A stretch of 64,000 nucleotides of DNA from positions 32,001-96,000 of IMG/VR virus record IMGVR_UViG_3300027708_000033; one strand, written 5' to 3'. This DNA is from a virus. Every line of letters begins with the position of its first letter. Within the stretch, counting starts at the first letter, position 1. Positions 14,097-22,360 of the stretch are shown piece by piece. The notes under the pieces were generated by a model. The model saw only the letters and a program-made list of their open reading frames with translations. It searched no databases and was not told the origin of the DNA. The position numbers were made by a program, and so were the translations under genes.

Positions 14097-17000
14097 TTAG
14101 CCGATCCAACCGGAGCGAAACTTCACCTCTAGTGTTCCGGTAGTATTGCTTCCGGCATCGGTAATCTTGATTGTGTTGACGCCTGGCTGAATAACAATCC
14201 AGTCAACTAGTGTGTCTAGCAGCTCGCGACTTCCAGTAGTGTTGTTGTTCAAGAACACATCACGATTATAGGTGTCTATTACCATGAATTCATTGTTAGT
14301 CAAAGTAACTGTTCCTGTCGCTGCAGCGTACGCGTAATCTGCTGAGGCGCCTGTGTAAACATAGGTCAAGTCTAGAGTCGTTGAACTTGTGAAGTTGACA
14401 GCTTGGACTACAAAAGTTCCATCAAAACTGTTTCCAACTGAGGCTATGGTAACGCTGTCTCCGACAGCTAGTTTATAGTTAGTAGAAACTGAAACTGTTG
14501 CATACTTGACTCCGTCGGTAGTGACACGCTTTACTGCAGTCACCGGGCCTAGGCTTAGTCCAGCTGCGCTTAGCGCACTAAGCATCTTTATGCTTTGGTT
14601 AGTGGTTGTGTTCTTGATTACACTGTTTGCAGTAAACGGTCCGGTGACTGTCATCAATGCGCATACGTTAGTGTTGCCGATGTTGTTGAACGTTGCACTT
14701 CCACCTGAGGTAATAGTTGACTTTGTAAAGCCTTCATCTACAGTAGTGTCATAGTGGTACTTGATTGGGTCAGGTGCACGAAGTCCCACGGAGAAGTCCA
14801 TACGACCACGAGCATTCACAACATCGATAGTCGGCTGGCCGCTCAAACGAACTTGAGCGCCTTTTACCGGCGACTCGTCGGCTAGTAGCCAGCCTTTAGT
14901 GCGTACAAGGTCTATGGCCTTTACAAGTTTGTTTCTTGCAGCATCTATGTACGAAGCGTCAGGCGGCAGGATTGACCCCTTGAGCTCAATTTGCCTTGCC
15001 GTGTATCTACCAACTACGTCGTAGGAACCGTCTCCAAGACCGCGTGGTAGGTCCTGAATGTCGCTCTGGGTCTGTCCCCACCAGCCATTAATTCCTGTGC
15101 AGACCCAGACAATCGAATCCTCATCAATAGTGTTTAGGATTAGTCCGTTTATGTTCACATCGGCATTTAGCTGCATACCTGTAAGGTGAGGGTATGGAAC
15201 AGGACGTAAGGCGTTATTGACCTTTGTAGTTTCTTGGCCTTGGCTAAAGTCGTCTGTGTACTCATTGACATAGGCAGATGCTTCTAGCATTGCAGCGTCA
15301 ATCAAGAACTTCTGTCCTGCAGTTCCAGCGGTAGGCTGGTACAGTCGTATCTGTGCAATTACAGCATCTGCAGGAGCAACAGCAGTTACAGCTAGTCGTA
15401 CCCAGCCTTCGTCGCTGACCATTGGTATAAGTGCGCCGGTAGCAAACGAGAGCTGTGTACCTGTAAAGTCGTACCAGTAGAGATAAAGCCTAAGTGAAGA
15501 GGCTTCTTGCCCAACTGGAATTTTTACATATAACGACGCAGAATAAGTTGTGCCTGGAGCAATTGCTGTAACACTGCCGTCAAAATAAGAAGTCGGTGTA
15601 GAACTTGCTTCAAACACTGCACCATCAAAATAAGCCTGAGTACCGCTTGCTGGCGTGGCGGTTGAATAAAATACAAGACCTGCCGTTACCGCTCCGAGAG
15701 GAGCAGTTGCCGTGACGCTTATGCGAGTCCAACCTGAAGACGTGACTGTCTTAGATGTTCCGTTTATAGTTGAAAAACTAGAGCCACCGCTGTTTCTCCA
15801 CTCAATGCCTGCGTAGTACGAAACCGCAGTGTTGACGTCACGGACATAAATAGAAGAAGTGTACGTGACACCAACAGTTACCGCCGTCCACGCAAAAGCC
15901 ACACCTGAGTTAAATATTCCAAAGGTTCCAAAACCGTCCGCGGTAACTAAGGCCGATTTAGTTCCAATGTAAAACTGAGACGCTGAAGCAACTGCAGATA
16001 TAGAGTTAAGAGACCCCCAGCTAGGATTAGCAAGATACTGCTGGACGCTAGTACTTGCGTTAGCAGTGCCAGACCATGCATAAGTTAGATTAGCTGCAGC
16101 CGTTGTGCTGCCATCAAAGTATGACTTAAGCTGAGAAGACTGTTCTACTAGTAACTGGTCGTAATAAAAGACATCTCCCGCTGACGGGTTAGTGACAAGC
16201 TCTATTTTCATAGTGGTTAAGTCAGAAGGCATAGTATAAGTTCGGCTTATTCTAGTCCAAGTTCCTGCCGTAACTGAAACTGCCGTAGATGGGTATAGAC
16301 TACCAGAACCAGTGCCGAGCGTCATAAATAAAGAAACAGTTTGTGCACGACTAGCGTACACATATACTGAGGCGGTATAAGTTTTGCTTGCAAAAGTTGA
16401 CCCATTAGCAAAAAAGTCTGATGTTAGATTAAGTTGGCTCGCTCCTGTTCCTTGGTACACATTAACAGCATACGAGTAAGAACCGCTTTGCTTGTCTGCA
16501 CTAGTTCTGTATCGACCGTATGCCAAGTTTCCTGGGTTGTATCCAGAAACCCAACCATCAACCATGTTTGCAACTTGATTACTTGTTGAAGCATCAGCGG
16601 TTCCATTCCATGTGTAAGTGAAGTCACCTGCTGCAGTCGTTGACCCGTCAAAATACGTATTAACTGAAGAACCTGCTTCAAGCATAGCAGCGTCTATGTA
16701 AACCTGTGAACCATACGCAGCTGTTGAAGGAACTACTAGTACAAGTGAAGCACCTGTTGCAGCAGCGGCTCCAGCTCCAGACGGAGCAACGCCAGTGACG
16801 CTAATTCTTGTCCAAGAACCGGTAGAAATAGCTGTTGCAGTACCACCACTAGTACTTATGTAACCTCCGCTGCCACGCCAGTCAATATTTACATAAATGT
16901 TTCCACCGAGGCTTAGGTCTTTAACATATAAAGAACCAACATAAGTAGTTCCAGCAGTGACGGCCGTGTTATAGGAATAAGTGGCGAGATTGCCAGAACT

Positions 17001-18011
17001 ACTAAGGCTTGTCACTAAACCGCTATAAGTACCTAGATAGCTCGTTGTAGAACTTCTAGCAACGATACTTTTTGCCAAATCTGCTGAGTAGTTAGGTGCA
17101 GCAGAGTATTGCTGTAGACTTGTGCTTAAGTTAGTGGTGCTAGACCAGGCATAAGTAAACTCATTAGCAGCAGCGGTGTTCCCATCAAAGTAAGGCCTAG
17201 TCGTTGATGCTAGGTCTATCAGAACGGCGTCTAGGTAGAAAGTTTTTCCTACAGCAACTGTCGCGCTGTTTAGTACATAAAAAGTGTAGTTTTGAGCAGT
17301 AGTCGTGGTAAATGTAACTGAAAGTCTTTCCCAAGTATCGTACAAAGTCGCGTTTGTAGATGTCACTGCAAAGCTGGTTCCTTGAACGCTAAGCTGTGGT
17401 AGAACAGAACCAGTTGGAGTGTAGACGTACGCAGAATAAGTGTATGTTGTAGTAGCAGGCAGGGAAAGTGCGTATCCGGCACCATTGTTTGTTCCACCTG
17501 TACCAGCGGCGTACGTGACAAGCAAACTTTGACTGCCGACGTATTTTTGCGCAGTAGACACGGCAATACTGGCAGTATTTGGTGTTGCTCCAGCACCAAG
17601 CCAACCATTCGTAGGAGTAGTAGCGTGTTCAAAACTTGGGTTTGTGCACAAGTTAATTCTGCTAGTAGTTGTAGTAGAAGTTGCCGCAAAGTTTGGGTTA
17701 AGAATTAGATTAGTGCGAATGGTTGCCGTGCTAGACGATGCTTCAAAACCAGGGTTAGTCGCTAAGTTAGTTCTAGCAGTGGTTGTGGCAGTAGTGTCTT
17801 CAAAGCTTGGATTGCTGATTAGGTTTGTAGTTGCAGCTGATGACCATGCCACACCAGCTGAAGCAATTGCTGGCTTAGTCACTTCTAGACATGTGCTGCC
17901 AAAGAAGCCATCCGTTGTGCTACGAACAAACGAAGTTCCACTTCCAAGAGCGGACCATCCGGTAGTGTCTGTCTTAAACGACGGGTTACCTATAAGGTTT
18001 ATACGACTCAT
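14097..18011 (-). CDS. Distal tail (Dit-like) protein with five nested CBM4/9-like carbohydrate-binding domains
   Basis: First gene after tape measure; NL..NP.F starts, Y..S.YV / W.R.S.T / D....E..YFDG bodies; C-term GWWG..APDPIKY..W..IQPG.N..RSGW. Confidence 0.85.
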   Translation of the reverse strand: MSRINLIGNPSFKTDTTGWSALGSGTSFVRSTTDGFFGSTCLEVTKPAIASAGVAWSSAATTNLISNPSFEDTTATTTARTNLATNPGFEASSSTATIRTNLILNPNFAATSTTTTSRINLCTNPSFEHATTPTNGWLGAGATPNTASIAVSTAQKYVGSQSLLVTYAAGTGGTNNGAGYALSLPATTTYTYSAYVYTPTGSVLPQLSVQGTSFAVTSTNATLYDTWERLSVTFTTTTAQNYTFYVLNSATVAVGKTFYLDAVLIDLASTTRPYFDGNTAAANEFTYAWSSTTNLSTSLQQYSAAPNYSADLAKSIVARSSTTSYLGTYSGLVTSLSSSGNLATYSYNTAVTAGTTYVGSLYVKDLSLGGNIYVNIDWRGSGGYISTSGGTATAISTGSWTRISVTGVAPSGAGAAAATGASLVLVVPSTAAYGSQVYIDAAMLEAGSSVNTYFDGSTTAAGDFTYTWNGTADASTSNQVANMVDGWVSGYNPGNLAYGRYRTSADKQSGSYSYAVNVYQGTGASQLNLTSDFFANGSTFASKTYTASVYVYASRAQTVSLFMTLGTGSGSLYPSTAVSVTAGTWTRISRTYTMPSDLTTMKIELVTNPSAGDVFYYDQLLVEQSSQLKSYFDGSTTAAANLTYAWSGTANASTSVQQYLANPSWGSLNSISAVASASQFYIGTKSALVTADGFGTFGIFNSGVAFAWTAVTVGVTYTSSIYVRDVNTAVSYYAGIEWRNSGGSSFSTINGTSKTVTSSGWTRISVTATAPLGAVTAGLVFYSTATPASGTQAYFDGAVFEASSTPTSYFDGSVTAIAPGTTYSASLYVKIPVGQEASSLRLYLYWYDFTGTQLSFATGALIPMVSDEGWVRLAVTAVAPADAVIAQIRLYQPTAGTAGQKFLIDAAMLEASAYVNEYTDDFSQGQETTKVNNALRPVPYPHLTGMQLNADVNINGLILNTIDEDSIVWVCTGINGWWGQTQSDIQDLPRGLGDGSYDVVGRYTARQIELKGSILPPDASYIDAARNKLVKAIDLVRTKGWLLADESPVKGAQVRLSGQPTIDVVNARGRMDFSVGLRAPDPIKYHYDTTVDEGFTKSTITSGGSATFNNIGNTNVCALMTVTGPFTANSVIKNTTTNQSIKMLSALSAAGLSLGPVTAVKRVTTDGVKYATVSVSTNYKLAVGDSVTIASVGNSFDGTFVVQAVNFTSSTTLDLTYVYTGASADYAYAAATGTVTLTNNEFMVIDTYNRDVFLNNNTTGSRELLDTLVDWIVIQPGVNTIKITDAGSNTTGTLEVKFRSGWIG

Positions 18012-21000
18012 CCGCGAGCTCCTCTACGCATTTGAAGTTGAAGCACACGACCGACTTCAGCAGCAAGTTCAACGGTGTCCATTCCAGGACTCGAGTTGAC
18101 ACTTATCGAAATGTTGACATCTCCACTAGACTGTGCTCCTGCCATACGAGCAATAGCCTGGTCAGGGTAACTGCCGTTGTTGACAGCGTTTAGTAGTGGA
18201 AGATACTTCTTTGTCGACAGGGCGTTGACAACAAACTCACCAGATGAAATCATTGCAGGAATCAGGTCGTCACGAGGACCACCACGGCCAACAGCGTAAC
18301 CTGAACCGTTTACATATTTTGCGATGCCGCCGTTTGCAAGTTTAAGAAGTCCGCCGTCTTTCTTTTTCTTGAAGGCATCAACAATAGACTGGAATGCGCT
18401 ACCCCAAGTGCTCCCATCAAACAGGTTAAAGCCCTTAGGCTTATTTTTTACGTCAAAGTCTACAGGAATCTTTACTGTACCAGGCTTGAGTTTAGCAACA
18501 GCATCTTGAACCTTAGTTTTTCCAGTTGCAATGCCGTCTACAAGTGTTTGTGCCCAGTGAGCACCATGCTCTTTGACACCTTCGTCGTAGATTGCTTTCC
18601 ACGTAGTTAAAGTTTTCTGTGCTTCTGTGACTGTTAGCGCCTTTGAAGTCATGCCCTCGGATAGGGCCAAAGCAGCCTTAGCACCTACTGTTGAAAAAGC
18701 TGTCTGAATTACACTTGCCTGATTAGATATACCAGTTGCTGCACCACTGGAAGCTGTTGCGGCCGCAGCTTCAAATGATGCTCTAGCACGTTCAATAGTT
18801 TTGGTGCCTCCGTCTACCATCTTCTGTGCTAGCTGTGCTGCAATCTTCGGGTCCATAGCGCTAAGACCTTTGATAGTAGCGTCACCGGCATTGTGCGCAG
18901 CTAGGTACAGAAGATTGTTTTGGAAGGCAGCAGCTTCTCTAACTTGCCTGTTCTGCTCTTTTAAGAACTTGTCTAGAGAAACTTTTCCATCTGTGGTAGC
19001 AGCGTCAATTGCGTCGGAGTAGCTTATCATTTTGCCGGCTGCATCTGTGATGCCCTTGGCTAGGTTTTCAGCTGCGACCCTGTTGTTCTCCATTTGAGCA
19101 GCGCCTTTACCCTGAGCCAAAGTGACCAGAGTCTGCTGCCGCTCTTGTTCAGTCATTGCTGCGGTGTTGATACCTAGACTTGTCGCTAGCTCCTGAATGT
19201 CTGTTTTATAGTCAGGCATTGTGTCAAGAAGTGCTGATACGGCTTCATCATTATCTCCGAGAGCTACACTCATTTCCTGGAAGCGAGCCTGAGCAGCAGG
19301 CATGTTGCTTTGAGCTAGAGTACTGAGTTGAGAGCCAACTTTTTTAAGTTGACCGGCCATCTGGTCAAACTCAGCAACCATTGCTCGGCTACCAAGATAG
19401 TCACCAGCTTGGTTGAACCAAGGAGCTTTAGTGTAACTGTTAAGTTTAACCACAGCAGCACCCAAGTCTTTGCTACCTACAGCTGCAATTTTTATAGTCT
19501 TATTCGCATCGGCCCATTGGGTAGTCCAACTGCTGCTAGGCAGTAGGTCGACAAAGTTGACGGATTCCAATGACTTTCTTAGTGTCACTGCACCGTCTAC
19601 ACCGGTGAGTAGCGAGTTCCTAATTTGGTCACCGGACATTGCTGCATCTAGTCTTGCCTGCTTAAACGCCTCGTCCAGTTGAACAGCAACATCGAGAAGA
19701 ACTCCGGCTGCCATTGCCCAGCCGGCACCTTTAGTTAGTTTTGAGAAGAATCCGTTTTTAGCAACGTTTGCAGTTTTAAGTGCTGCTTCGTTTTTAGCAA
19801 CGGCTGTAGTTTGCGCTTCAGCTGCTAACGTGGCTCTGCCTTGGGCGGCTTTTAGTTCAGACTGGCCTAGCACAGCCTTTTGTGCAGCCACGTTTTCACG
19901 CTCAATGGCTAGTGCTAAGTCTTGCTCAGCTTTAGTTTCTCGCATGACTGCGGCAGTGTATCTATCTGCTGCGGCGGCTCTCTCTGCGTCGCTTGCTGTT
20001 CCGGACTGATTGACCTTCATTGCCTCAGCTTCAGCAATGTTAGCCTCATTTACAGCTAGTGCTAGCTTGTCCTCAGCCTGAGTCCTAGCATTAGTCGCTT
20101 GCAATAATCTTGCTCGCTGAGCAGCAAGGCTTGCCTCAGCCTTTTGAACTCCAAGAGTGGCTTTGTCTAATGCAATGTTAGCAGCCTGAAGAGCTTTTGT
20201 AGTTTTTGCTGCCTCTGCGTTAGCAGTCTTTACGCGGTTAGTTTCACCAAACAGCGCATTCATTCCTCGTGTCACTGATTTTAGTTGGCCAATGAAGTAA
20301 TTAAAGATAAACTGTGCACCCTTGAATCCAAAAATAAGAGCAACTATTGCACCATGGAATACGCCTAGAACGTCTAAAACAGGTTTTAGTGCATTTAGCA
20401 CATTGGTGACAATGTCTACAAGTCCAGAAAGAGTTCTAAAGAATGTGCTCGCAGCACCAGAATCAGATAGAGCAGCAATAAACTTAGTTAGACTTACAAG
20501 AAGCTGTGCAAGAGCAGGCTGAGTCTTAATAGATTCTTGAAGAATAGTTTGAATAAACGGAGTCGCTTGTTTTAGCGTCTGCCAGAATATCTTTGTTTCA
20601 GGAGCAGTTCCTAACTCCTTGAACACATGTAAAACACCACCTATTGTGGTGAGCATTTCCTTTGTATTAGCCGCAGCTCCAAGGAAATACGATTGAGATT
20701 TACTCTGCCCGGCAACTGTGTTCATTTCACGCCATTTGCCTGTAGCTGTCTGAAGGAAATTCAGCATTAGTTGGCCGCCACTTGTTGGGCCAAAGTTAGC
20801 CTTTATCAGACCGCCTAACCCTGAGAACACATTTCCAGCAATTTTACCGAACTGTGCTGCAAGCTCACCGGCGCGGTTGAAAAACTTAGTTAGTGAACCG
20901 TCCTGGAGACCTTTAGTCACAAAGTTGTTAAACTTAGTTGAAATAGTTACCAGCCAGCCGGCAAACTTTTCTGTTAGCGGCGCAGCGGCTTTAAGTATTC

Positions 21001-22360
21001 CAAGCATTCCACTAAAAGCGTTTCCAGCAGCTTTACCAAAGCTAGATAGCACGGTACGCGATGTGGAGACAAATGAGTCCATTCGACCGCGAACTGTTGC
21101 GGTATCAAAGATGTCAACAAAGTTTTTAGTTGCATCTCCCATGCCGAGAGCTAGCTGGTGAATGTTACCCTTTAGCGCAGGAAATGCCGGTCCGTGGATT
21201 AGTCTATCTAGTTGCTGCTGTAATACTGGTAAGAATCCAGAAGCTGCCGCTTCCTTTAGTGCTTGAAACTCTGGATGCATCTTTGCAAGATATCTAGCAA
21301 ACTCTTTCTGCGTCACAGTGAGCTTCATTAGCGCTGCGTTAGCTTGCTCAGCTCCTGCAGTTTGAGCTCGTCTTAGTGCACGCTCCGCTGCAGCCTGAGA
21401 CTGAAGTGCGTCACGTAGAGTTTTGTTTAGGTCTAGCTCGGCATTGTTTCTTGCATTTGTCGCATCGCGGACAGATTCGATACCCATGATTCCAGTTTGT
21501 GCAACACGGTCTTGCTCTTTACTGGTAACTTCTGCATTTGCCTTTGACCTGCGAAAGGCTAGTTCAGCCTCCTGGTACTGAAGCATAGCCTGTCTACGAG
21601 CCATGCTGCTAGGCGGCATATCCTGAACACGGGCAAGAGTCAATCTTGCCTTTTCAAGGTTTAGACTTGCACCTGTCTCATCTAGCGCAGCTTGTTCAGC
21701 TTCAAAGCCAATCTGCCGCATTTGTTCACGGCCGTCTTTAATGGCATTATTTAGATTATGTTGTGCCTCTTCAAGGCGCTTATGTGCAGCTGCTAGGCTT
21801 TCATCGTTGCGCTGAATGGTTTGTGCTAAGGCACGTTCAGCATCTTGCTGCGCTCTTGCTCGTTGTACGCCACCTGTAGGGTTTGCTAATGTGCTTGCTG
21901 CAGCACCGACACCGGACAGCGCTAGTTTAGCAACTGCAAATCCTGCTTTCAGTCCGGCAAAAGCGCCTACTACTGCAACTAACGAAGCTGCAGCACCACC
22001 AGCGACTCCGATTAGAGAACCTAAACCTCCGACTAGAGAAGATACGCTGCCAGATAGAACACCAATACCGCCTTGAGCAATGTATCCAGCCTTGCTCAAG
22101 GCCATCATCTTTTCACGAGCCTTATCAGCTCCAGGAGCAAGCGACTCTAACTTGTTTAGAATTTCATCAAAGCCGCCGCCTTTGCTGCCTCCACCACTGG
22201 CCATTCCTTTTTCAAGGCCGCGACTTATATCTTGTCCAGCCTTTTGACCGATGCCTTCGGCACCGCGAAGTTTGTCCTTTAGGTCTCTCTCAAAACCTTC
22301 AGTAATTACGCGCGCAATGAGCGTAATGCTACCAACGTTATTAGCGCCGCCGATGGCCAT
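18008..22360 (-). CDS. Tape measure protein
   Basis: 1450 aa, Ala/Gly/Leu-rich helical with hydrophobic stretches; C-term GGPRDDLIPAMISSGEFVVNA; follows the chaperone genes. Confidence 0.93.
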   Translation of the reverse strand: MAIGGANNVGSITLIARVITEGFERDLKDKLRGAEGIGQKAGQDISRGLEKGMASGGGSKGGGFDEILNKLESLAPGADKAREKMMALSKAGYIAQGGIGVLSGSVSSLVGGLGSLIGVAGGAAASLVAVVGAFAGLKAGFAVAKLALSGVGAAASTLANPTGGVQRARAQQDAERALAQTIQRNDESLAAAHKRLEEAQHNLNNAIKDGREQMRQIGFEAEQAALDETGASLNLEKARLTLARVQDMPPSSMARRQAMLQYQEAELAFRRSKANAEVTSKEQDRVAQTGIMGIESVRDATNARNNAELDLNKTLRDALQSQAAAERALRRAQTAGAEQANAALMKLTVTQKEFARYLAKMHPEFQALKEAAASGFLPVLQQQLDRLIHGPAFPALKGNIHQLALGMGDATKNFVDIFDTATVRGRMDSFVSTSRTVLSSFGKAAGNAFSGMLGILKAAAPLTEKFAGWLVTISTKFNNFVTKGLQDGSLTKFFNRAGELAAQFGKIAGNVFSGLGGLIKANFGPTSGGQLMLNFLQTATGKWREMNTVAGQSKSQSYFLGAAANTKEMLTTIGGVLHVFKELGTAPETKIFWQTLKQATPFIQTILQESIKTQPALAQLLVSLTKFIAALSDSGAASTFFRTLSGLVDIVTNVLNALKPVLDVLGVFHGAIVALIFGFKGAQFIFNYFIGQLKSVTRGMNALFGETNRVKTANAEAAKTTKALQAANIALDKATLGVQKAEASLAAQRARLLQATNARTQAEDKLALAVNEANIAEAEAMKVNQSGTASDAERAAAADRYTAAVMRETKAEQDLALAIERENVAAQKAVLGQSELKAAQGRATLAAEAQTTAVAKNEAALKTANVAKNGFFSKLTKGAGWAMAAGVLLDVAVQLDEAFKQARLDAAMSGDQIRNSLLTGVDGAVTLRKSLESVNFVDLLPSSSWTTQWADANKTIKIAAVGSKDLGAAVVKLNSYTKAPWFNQAGDYLGSRAMVAEFDQMAGQLKKVGSQLSTLAQSNMPAAQARFQEMSVALGDNDEAVSALLDTMPDYKTDIQELATSLGINTAAMTEQERQQTLVTLAQGKGAAQMENNRVAAENLAKGITDAAGKMISYSDAIDAATTDGKVSLDKFLKEQNRQVREAAAFQNNLLYLAAHNAGDATIKGLSAMDPKIAAQLAQKMVDGGTKTIERARASFEAAAATASSGAATGISNQASVIQTAFSTVGAKAALALSEGMTSKALTVTEAQKTLTTWKAIYDEGVKEHGAHWAQTLVDGIATGKTKVQDAVAKLKPGTVKIPVDFDVKNKPKGFNLFDGSTWGSAFQSIVDAFKKKKDGGLLKLANGGIAKYVNGSGYAVGRGGPRDDLIPAMISSGEFVVNALSTKKYLPLLNAVNNGSYPDQAIARMAGAQSSGDVNISISVNSSPGMDTVELAAEVGRVLQLQMRRGARG

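Follow-up and report, generated by a model that had tools for sequence, protein, structure and literature searches.

A distal tail protein of an uncultured actinobacterial siphovirus with a predicted nest of five carbohydrate-binding modules

Introduction

How can one tail protein carry five copies of the first strand of a carbohydrate-binding module (CBM), only one of which runs straight into a complete module? The question is raised by an open reading frame (ORF) of 1304 residues (14097..18011, minus strand) in a 64,000-nucleotide stretch of viral DNA, bases 32001-96000 of the 127,237-base virus record IMGVR_UViG_3300027708_000033 (47% G+C). This stretch is referred to here as the window. 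The whole observation lies in this one ORF, as read from the ORF list and its translation, and on the strength of its sequence matches and gene order we take its product to be the distal tail protein (Dit) of an uncultured actinobacterial siphovirus. A prediction made earlier from the sequence and its translations proposed that the five CBMs, named A to E from the outside inwards, are nested within one another in the order A[B[C[D[E]D]C]B]A, so that the first strand encountered belongs to the last body and only the innermost module is continuous. Our analysis of the motifs, the homologues and the predicted structures indicates that this nested architecture is probably correct for the Dit chain.

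Results

Five first strands and their bodies in one chain

The strand motif NL..NP.F was found at residues 5, 63, 82, 101 and 120, with the last four spaced 19 residues apart, and YFDG was found at residues 274, 453, 631, 794 and 809, with a D....E preceding the end of each body. These positions, the spacing and the body ends are as originally described, and the range given for them (15250-18011) corresponds to residues 1-920. The segment SAGVAWS ends at residue 57 and the segment VTAIAPGTTY starts at residue 815, leaving a gap of 757 residues. A position-specific scoring matrix (PSSM) of 14 columns for the strand, built from other proteins with the 1304-residue protein and its close family excluded, scored the five sites at 25-36 bits. 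At a threshold of at least 10 bits this matrix matched 924 times across 207 related proteins and not once in shuffled versions of them, and within the window (six-frame ORFs of at least 100 residues, 64 kb) all five of its matches were inside the 1304-residue ORF. The five-strand pattern is not a product of chance.

To delimit the pieces we used a hidden Markov model (HMM) of 162 positions, built from 26 uninterrupted domains of other proteins in which the strand unit runs straight into the body. Residues 3-52 aligned to positions 2-51 of the model and residues 815-920 to positions 60-161, while two orphan strand units, at residues 61-77 and 80-97, aligned to positions 2-18 and 2-19, respectively. 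A match over positions 2-162 was obtained at residues 118-277 only (domain E), in agreement with the claim that the fifth strand alone continues into a full body. The three bodies that follow, which had been called headless, were observed at residues 310-456 (positions 20-162), 493-634 (positions 20-162) and 665-812 (positions 18-162), each therefore starting beyond the first strand. From these coordinates it follows that the pieces are complementary, with the three orphan units supplying what the three bodies lack and the first and last pieces together making one domain (Table 1). We also considered whether the bodies keep an NL..NP.F-like strand of their own, e.g. QQYLANPSW, and rejected this, as the HMM places that stretch at the GW loop region and not at strand 1.

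Assignment to the CBM4/9/22 type was supported by the Pfam family CBM_4_9 (PF02018), which matched four stretches of the protein with 67.9 bits (cut-off 25.9, E 1.5e-18; best stretch residues 120-246), and by a profile of domain A that matched the CBM22 chain 4xuo_A (E 1.9e-6). When the whole protein was searched by sequence against the PDB, only chance-level matches came back (E 0.036 or worse).

Table 1. Pieces of the predicted nest, the remainder of the gene and its two neighbours, with positions in the window.
Feature	Position	Strand	Basis
A-head, residues 1-57, first third of the outermost CBM, ends SAGVAWS	17841..18011	minus	HMM positions 2-51; continuous in homologues; docks on A-tail in prediction
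Orphan first-strand unit of B, residues 58-76, NLISNPSF at residue 63	17784..17840	minus	PSSM 26.5 bits; HMM positions 2-18
Orphan first-strand unit of C, residues 77-95, NLATNPGF at residue 82	17727..17783	minus	PSSM 35.2 bits; HMM positions 2-19
Orphan first-strand unit of D, residues 96-114, NLILNPNF at residue 101	17670..17726	minus	PSSM 30.4 bits
Domain E, residues 115-277, innermost and sole uninterrupted CBM	17181..17669	minus	HMM positions 2-162; Pfam CBM_4_9; superposition of predicted models
Return segment (FTYAWS...S.S motif) and headless body of D (body 2), residues 278-456	16644..17180	minus	HMM positions 20-162
Return segment and headless body of C (body 3), residues 457-634	16110..16643	minus	HMM positions 20-162; missing in P0006
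Return segment and headless body of B (body 4), residues 635-812	15576..16109	minus	HMM positions 18-162
A-tail, residues 813-925, last two thirds of A (VTAIAPGTTY ... LIDAAMLE)	15237..15575	minus	HMM positions 60-161; homologues; complex prediction
Dit proper, residues 926-1304	14100..15236	minus	PHROG 33 'distal tail protein Dit'
Whole gene, predicted five-CBM nested array (residues 1-925) followed by Dit proper	14097..18011	minus	ORF list and translation; Pfam; PHROG
Tape measure protein gene, 1450 residues, immediately upstream	18008..22360	minus	Six PHROG tape-measure families, best E 6.8e-48
Tal-like / minor tail protein gene, 1264 residues, immediately downstream	10256..14050	minus	phrog_1885 'minor tail protein', E 1.7e-24, residues 7-116

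Homologues with an uninterrupted domain A and paired copy-number change

An exhaustive homologue search returned 2040 relatives at E ≤0.001. Four short Dits (P0174, P0170, P0178 and P0150; 472-804 residues) begin MxR(I/V/T)NL..NPS and have one continuous N-terminal CBM followed directly by the Dit part, and their residues ~60-186 match residues 816-940 of the 1304-residue protein. In a joint alignment the invariant columns pass from K46 directly to Y823. Because domain A is continuous in these homologues, we conclude that in the present protein it is split by the 757-residue insert, which bears out the proposal that the first domain breaks off after SAGVAWS and resumes about 760 residues later.

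The number of inner domains varies among the Dits examined, with 0, 3, 4 or 6 observed, so that homologues with other numbers of levels do exist. One of them, P0006 (1111 residues, 84% identical), differs by two gaps only, one of 19 residues (residues 85-103) and one of 177 residues (residues 463-639), equivalent to one strand unit plus one return segment with body 3. A longer homologue, P0005 (1774 residues, 62% identical), has two additional strand units (20 and 19 residues) and two additional bodies (181 and 174 residues), with E flanked directly by the innermost extra unit on its N-terminal side and by the innermost extra body on its C-terminal side. Heads and bodies are balanced within the 1304-residue chain (three and three, plus A-head and A-tail) and likewise in the two close homologues.

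This coupling bears on a simpler alternative, in which the additional NL..NP.F units are no more than Thr-rich linker, the bodies are completed by their FTY.W.G...S.S return segments, and the inner domains are strung colinearly, as beads on a string, inside a split domain A. A role for the strand units as mere linker is disfavoured because the number of units tracks the number of bodies, falling together in P0006 and rising together in P0005, and we hold this alternative to be very unlikely, the more so in light of the models described below.

Predicted structure of the array

Two AlphaFold2 models were examined. Model 1, covering residues 1-940 (49-row alignment), had a mean predicted local distance difference test score (pLDDT) of 79.7, with residues 80-650 mostly above 90. 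Model 2, covering residues 55-818 (45-row alignment), had a mean pLDDT of 89.0, a predicted TM-score (pTM) of 0.75 and values of 87-95 in the region of the strand units, so that the extra strands are predicted to be ordered and not unstructured.

Superposition of solved CBMs on these models gave jelly-roll matches for domains B to E with Z scores of 14.5-16.2 over 139-154 residues at root-mean-square deviations (rmsd) of 2.3-3.0. In model 2, the CBM22 chain 1h6x aligned over 152 of its 159 residues (rmsd 3.0, Z 16.2) with residues 59..808, i.e. the strand at residue 63 with body 4 (domain B). The strand at residue 82 was joined to body 3 (domain C, residues 80..625) in both models, by 2xom_A in model 2 (139 aligned, rmsd 2.4, Z 15.7) and by 2y6j in model 1 (152 aligned, rmsd 2.5, Z 15.9), and the strand at residue 101 was joined to body 2 (domain D, residues 96..448) in model 1 only, by 8ic1_A (144 aligned, rmsd 2.3, Z 14.5). 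Domain E was matched alone by 4xup_C in model 2 (residues 114..269, 142 aligned) and by 8xmz_A in model 1 (residues 117..269, Z 15.0). The structure check suggested with the original prediction, i.e. asking which strand completes which body, thus returned the pairs 63 with body 4, 82 with body 3 and 101 with body 2. This order is anti-colinear, which leads to the predicted arrangement of the domains as nested and not colinear. A Foldseek search with the 940-residue model returned multi-domain matches (reelin repeats, tandem CBM22, Cry and Vip protoxins) at TM-scores of 0.09-0.35, which are uninformative on the pairing.

The same models argue against completion of the bodies by their return segments. 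In both, the place of the first strand in bodies 4, 3 and 2 is taken by the orphan units, and model 2 is highly confident there. Among the superpositions listed for either model none began at a return segment. Two matches, 9b45_1 and 6zps_AAA, extended domain E to residue 301 (residues 117..301), so that the return segment after E packs with E itself. This suggests that the FTY.W motif after each YFDG may pack on the inner domain as the chain returns.

For domain A, the A-head (residues 1-58) and A-tail (residues 813-925) were predicted as two separate chains and gave an ipSAE of 0.78, compared to 0.00 for the best of three controls. Of 80 solved complexes 58 attained that mark, as did 2 of 110 mismatched pairs, counts that are approximate because the alignment used here was our own. 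The runs agreed in at least 94% of contacts, the pLDDT of the partner was at least 86, and the tightest contacts in the predicted complex were between residues 41-46 and 899-905 and between residues 54-56 and 887-890. As the two chains are halves of a single domain resembling solved CBMs, the passing score may reflect that likeness and is no proof of binding.

Taken with the HMM coordinates, the uninterrupted homologues and the copy-number coupling, the two models and the docking of A make the nested order well supported, and the anti-colinear pairing originally proposed is upheld at the level of prediction. An interrupted domain lying within the interruption of another, the arrangement that defines recursive insertion, is found here by prediction and comparison only.

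An open/close grammar across related tail proteins

The 207 related proteins were tokenised with the PSSM as orphan strands (n), full domains (F), headless bodies (b) and other split pieces (H/t). Full domains only were observed in 26 proteins, and the other 181 contained split pieces; 31 of these began with a closing piece, many of them probably truncated proteins. In 66 of the remaining 150 proteins the number of opening pieces equalled the number of closing pieces, compared to a permutation mean of 23.9 (sd 4.4, maximum 43 in 5000 permutations). All 66 balanced proteins were in nested order, and 54 matched also by bracket type. The commonest words were nFFb (15 proteins), nnFbb (5) and nFb (4). 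The detector made some errors: P0005 was scored with 4 strands and 5 bodies when pairwise alignment gives 5 and 5, and P0044 with 3 orphan strands and 4 headless bodies when inspection gives 4 and 4. An excess of equal numbers over the ~24 expected is a further point against a linker role for the strand units.

Two further arrangements were seen in the family. In P0101 and P0153 a domain is split at HMM position ~90-103 with an 'nFb' nest inside, giving at least three insertion sites in the family. Five proteins of 1300-1400 residues (P0066, P0084, P0089, P0109 and P0190), most with FN3, contain an 'nFFb' nest and a Dit-like ...YRSGW(I/L/A)G end, and in these the CBM nest may lie inside a Dit-type C-terminal domain.

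Evidence against nesting within one chain

Several observations weigh against the nested reading. All of the structural evidence is prediction, and the pairing of strands with bodies was inferred from the first and last aligned residue, aligned length and rmsd reported by VIA-align for the models. In model 1, residues 1-75 had a pLDDT below 50, leaving levels A and B unresolved there, and domain A was covered as two chains. Across the family, 84 of the 150 proteins were unbalanced, in part through errors of the detector, and as related proteins are not independent samples, both this count and the 66 balanced proteins are indicative only. Members of the P0007 family (about ten proteins of ~1940 residues) follow the pattern 't b b b n F F b b b b b' and carry 7-8 headless bodies with at most one orphan strand; P0155 is written 'bbbbbb'. 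P0117 shows the reverse, with 8 orphan strands and no headless body. At the metagenome locus L001 (7001-12829 / 12876-18308 region), a 1942-residue protein of the P0014/P0008 family precedes a Tal-like gene, starts with a CBM closing piece behind a ribosome-binding site and ends ...YRSGWLG as Dits do, and the 411-residue gene upstream of it contains no strand unit. Searches for a close relative of the P0007/P0008 family found none by tblastn against the phage collection and none in the viral contig scan, and a metagenome scan yielded L001. The generality proposed for this architecture is upheld in part, as the open/close grammar recurs in many related tail proteins.

Body arrays with return segments and nearly no orphan strands, as in the P0007 family and P0155, together with the lack of strand units in the gene upstream at L001, are what the colinear alternative would lead one to expect. 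Bodies without a strand may do without one, perhaps using the return segment, or may be completed between chains. The latter leads to a second alternative for the present protein, in which the orphan units would complete bodies in other chains, either an adjacent Dit subunit or a different tail protein, so that the arms interlock around the tail tip. The monomer predictions are blind to whether completion occurs within or between chains, the A-head and A-tail dock as separate chains, and P0117, with its 8 orphan strands, shares a metagenome contig with P0014, in which 8 headless bodies and one tail piece are accompanied by a single orphan strand. Such an exchange is made improbable by the balance of heads and bodies within the 1304-residue chain and two close homologues, and by the linkers of ~10 residues between strand units, which fit a compact within-chain nest in the predicted model (pTM 0.75).

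A broader form of this idea can be drawn from the same contig, where the coexistence of 8 unmatched strands in one protein and 8 headless bodies plus a tail piece in another hints at complementation between chains. Strand unit and headless body could then be a general open/close complementation system of actinophage adhesion devices, donor-strand-like as in pili, with the six Dit arms or different tail proteins interlocked and arm composition set at assembly. We regard this as a speculative proposal with a low chance of being correct. The nest within a single chain is the reading that we carry forward.

Origin of the nest

The original prediction attributed the architecture to repeated in-frame self-insertion, of which we found no trace. 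Tandem Repeats Finder detected no tandem repeats in 14000-18100, and a search for direct repeats gave only short matches of 72-84%; the longest, of 68 nt, pairs the end of body 4 with that of body 2. These searches point to no junction homology and no recent duplication. The five domains are mutually 23-41% identical, and tail proteins other than this one contain counterparts of domain E and body 4 at 62-66% identity, an 'n F b' cassette of P0018 among them. From this divergence and the foreign counterparts we conclude that the nest is old and that its cassettes are exchanged among tail proteins; its origin may lie in self-insertion.

Gene and genomic setting

The ATG of the gene overlaps the stop codon of the tape measure gene (ATGA), and by ORF order and PHROG matches the gene follows the former and precedes one that is Tal-like, the position expected of a Dit gene. 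The whole protein matches PHROG 33 ('distal tail protein Dit') at residues 942-1186 (E 2.5e-23), and residues 926-1304 alone match it at E 6.5e-19. The C-terminal domain of Pfam SPP1_Dit scored 20.5 bits, under the cut-off of 25, and a profile search of the PDB reached SPP1 gp19.1 (2x8k) only at E 0.35. Relatives of the virus infect Microbacterium and Arthrobacter. Among cultured phages, those of Microbacterium come nearest in the Dit part (37-40% identity), and none of 93 phage records covered 80% of the 1304-residue protein.

A stored copy of the protein, P0004 (1261 residues, 100% identical), is 43 residues shorter and presumably begins at residue 44, without the first strand of domain A (window 17883-18011, minus strand). 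The ATG at 18011 is supported because the N-terminus MSRINLIGNPSF is conserved in P0006 and in the short Dit homologues.

Other features were observed in the Dit part and the neighbouring genes. By eye, a small beta unit (VGDSVTIASVGNSFDGTFVV) is present in the C-terminal Dit part at residues ~1150-1225 (window ~14340-14560); it is absent from the 472-residue P0174, present in P0170 and P0178, and resembles a unit repeated in the neighbouring gene. The downstream 1264-residue Tal-like protein contains many small Thr-rich beta units with weak Pfam matches only (FlgD_tudor, E1_FCCH). The C-terminal end of the tape measure protein (residues 1322-1416) weakly matches the endolysin family phrog_971 (E 4.3e-4), possibly a cell-wall-active motif.

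Discussion

In the model we propose, the N-terminal 925 residues of the Dit would form an arm of five CBM4/9/22-type beta-jelly-roll domains in a single chain, nested five deep, before the ring-forming Dit part. Domain A would be broken in a loop after residue 57, at about one third of its length, domains B, C and D would each be broken right after their 19-residue first-strand unit, and E would be whole. The chain would run through A-head, B-strand, C-strand, D-strand, E, D-body, C-body, B-body and A-tail into the Dit, with each domain joined to its host by two adjacent chain crossings, so that the arm starts and ends at the same point. The branched arms that had been suggested are not seen here, the array being a single nest. 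In evolution the arm would lengthen or shorten by one strand unit together with one body at a time.

If the Dit is hexameric, as in solved Dits, the tail tip would carry six such arms and up to 30 glycan-binding modules, and the arms would be expected to enhance adsorption to the polysaccharide of the cell wall, much as the evolved Dits do in phages of lactic acid bacteria. We infer sugar binding, hexameric display and rigidity, and the function as a glycan-binding arm is suggested by membership of the CBM family and by the evolved Dits.

Evolved Dits of lactic-acid-bacteria phages are described as having one or two CBMs inserted in the C-terminal galectin-like domain (PMC9437275), and a role of these CBMs in adsorption has been reported (PMC10688798). 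The present protein is similar in that the Dit gene follows the tape measure gene and bears CBMs thought to aid adsorption to cell-wall polysaccharide. It differs in that five mutually nested modules (residues 1-925) lie N-terminal to the whole Dit match (residues 942-1186). In the strict sense given in PMC9437275, an evolved Dit has its CBM within the galectin-like domain, between two linkers, whereas all five CBMs here lie before residue 942; the present protein would act as an evolved Dit does without belonging to that class as strictly defined.

The closest parallel in architecture is the Si3 insertion of the cyanobacterial RNA polymerase beta' subunit, in which four of eight SBHM domains are reported to be assembled from distant segments (PMC10895346) and which a 2026 survey describes as six levels deep (PMC13114784). 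In both, a small beta domain recurs many times, with several copies assembled from distant parts of the chain, and the resulting deep same-family nest forms an elongated arm. Si3 has the SBHM fold, a different host protein and a different role, and was solved experimentally, whereas the phage nest is known by prediction. In the phage nest, unlike in Si3, three of the four interruptions are at the same site, after strand 1, giving a run of 19-residue units. The CBM4/9/16/22/61 modules of glycoside hydrolases (e.g. 1h6x, 2y6j, 2zew, 2xom) share the fold of the predicted phage modules (Z 15-16, 139-154 aligned residues, rmsd 2.3-3.0), but are continuous in sequence, enzyme-attached and only 14-22% identical to them. 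Minor tail proteins of Arthrobacter and Microbacterium phages, e.g. gene 189 of Arthrobacter phage Racecar (P0029), share the domain family and the N-terminal run of strand units followed by headless bodies; they are not Dits, their nests hold extra complete domains (branching), and they are annotated just as 'minor tail protein'. A literature search in which subscription journals were sparsely represented turned up no account of phage tail proteins with nested CBMs, though supplementary structural tables of AlphaFold2 adhesion-device surveys might hold one. The system is kin to evolved Dits and to Si3, and what sets it apart is how deep the predicted nest goes, how regular the insertion site is and how widely the pattern occurs, unannotated, in tail proteins of actinophages. 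Depth would be five here and seven in P0005, comparable to or exceeding the six levels that PMC13114784 cites for the cyanobacterial RNA polymerase.

There are practical consequences for annotation and engineering. Domain annotation that assumes continuous domains miscounts and mis-delimits such proteins, and gene callers can clip the first strand, as the stored copy 43 residues short exemplifies. Engineering of host range by module swap must transfer a strand and its body jointly.

If the nest is real, these adhesion arms would be rigid, doubly tethered lectin-like stacks and not beads on a string. Their single point of entry and exit would let a multi-module arm join a structural protein without disturbing it, and their length would be tuned by adding or removing a 19-residue strand together with a body of ~175 residues.

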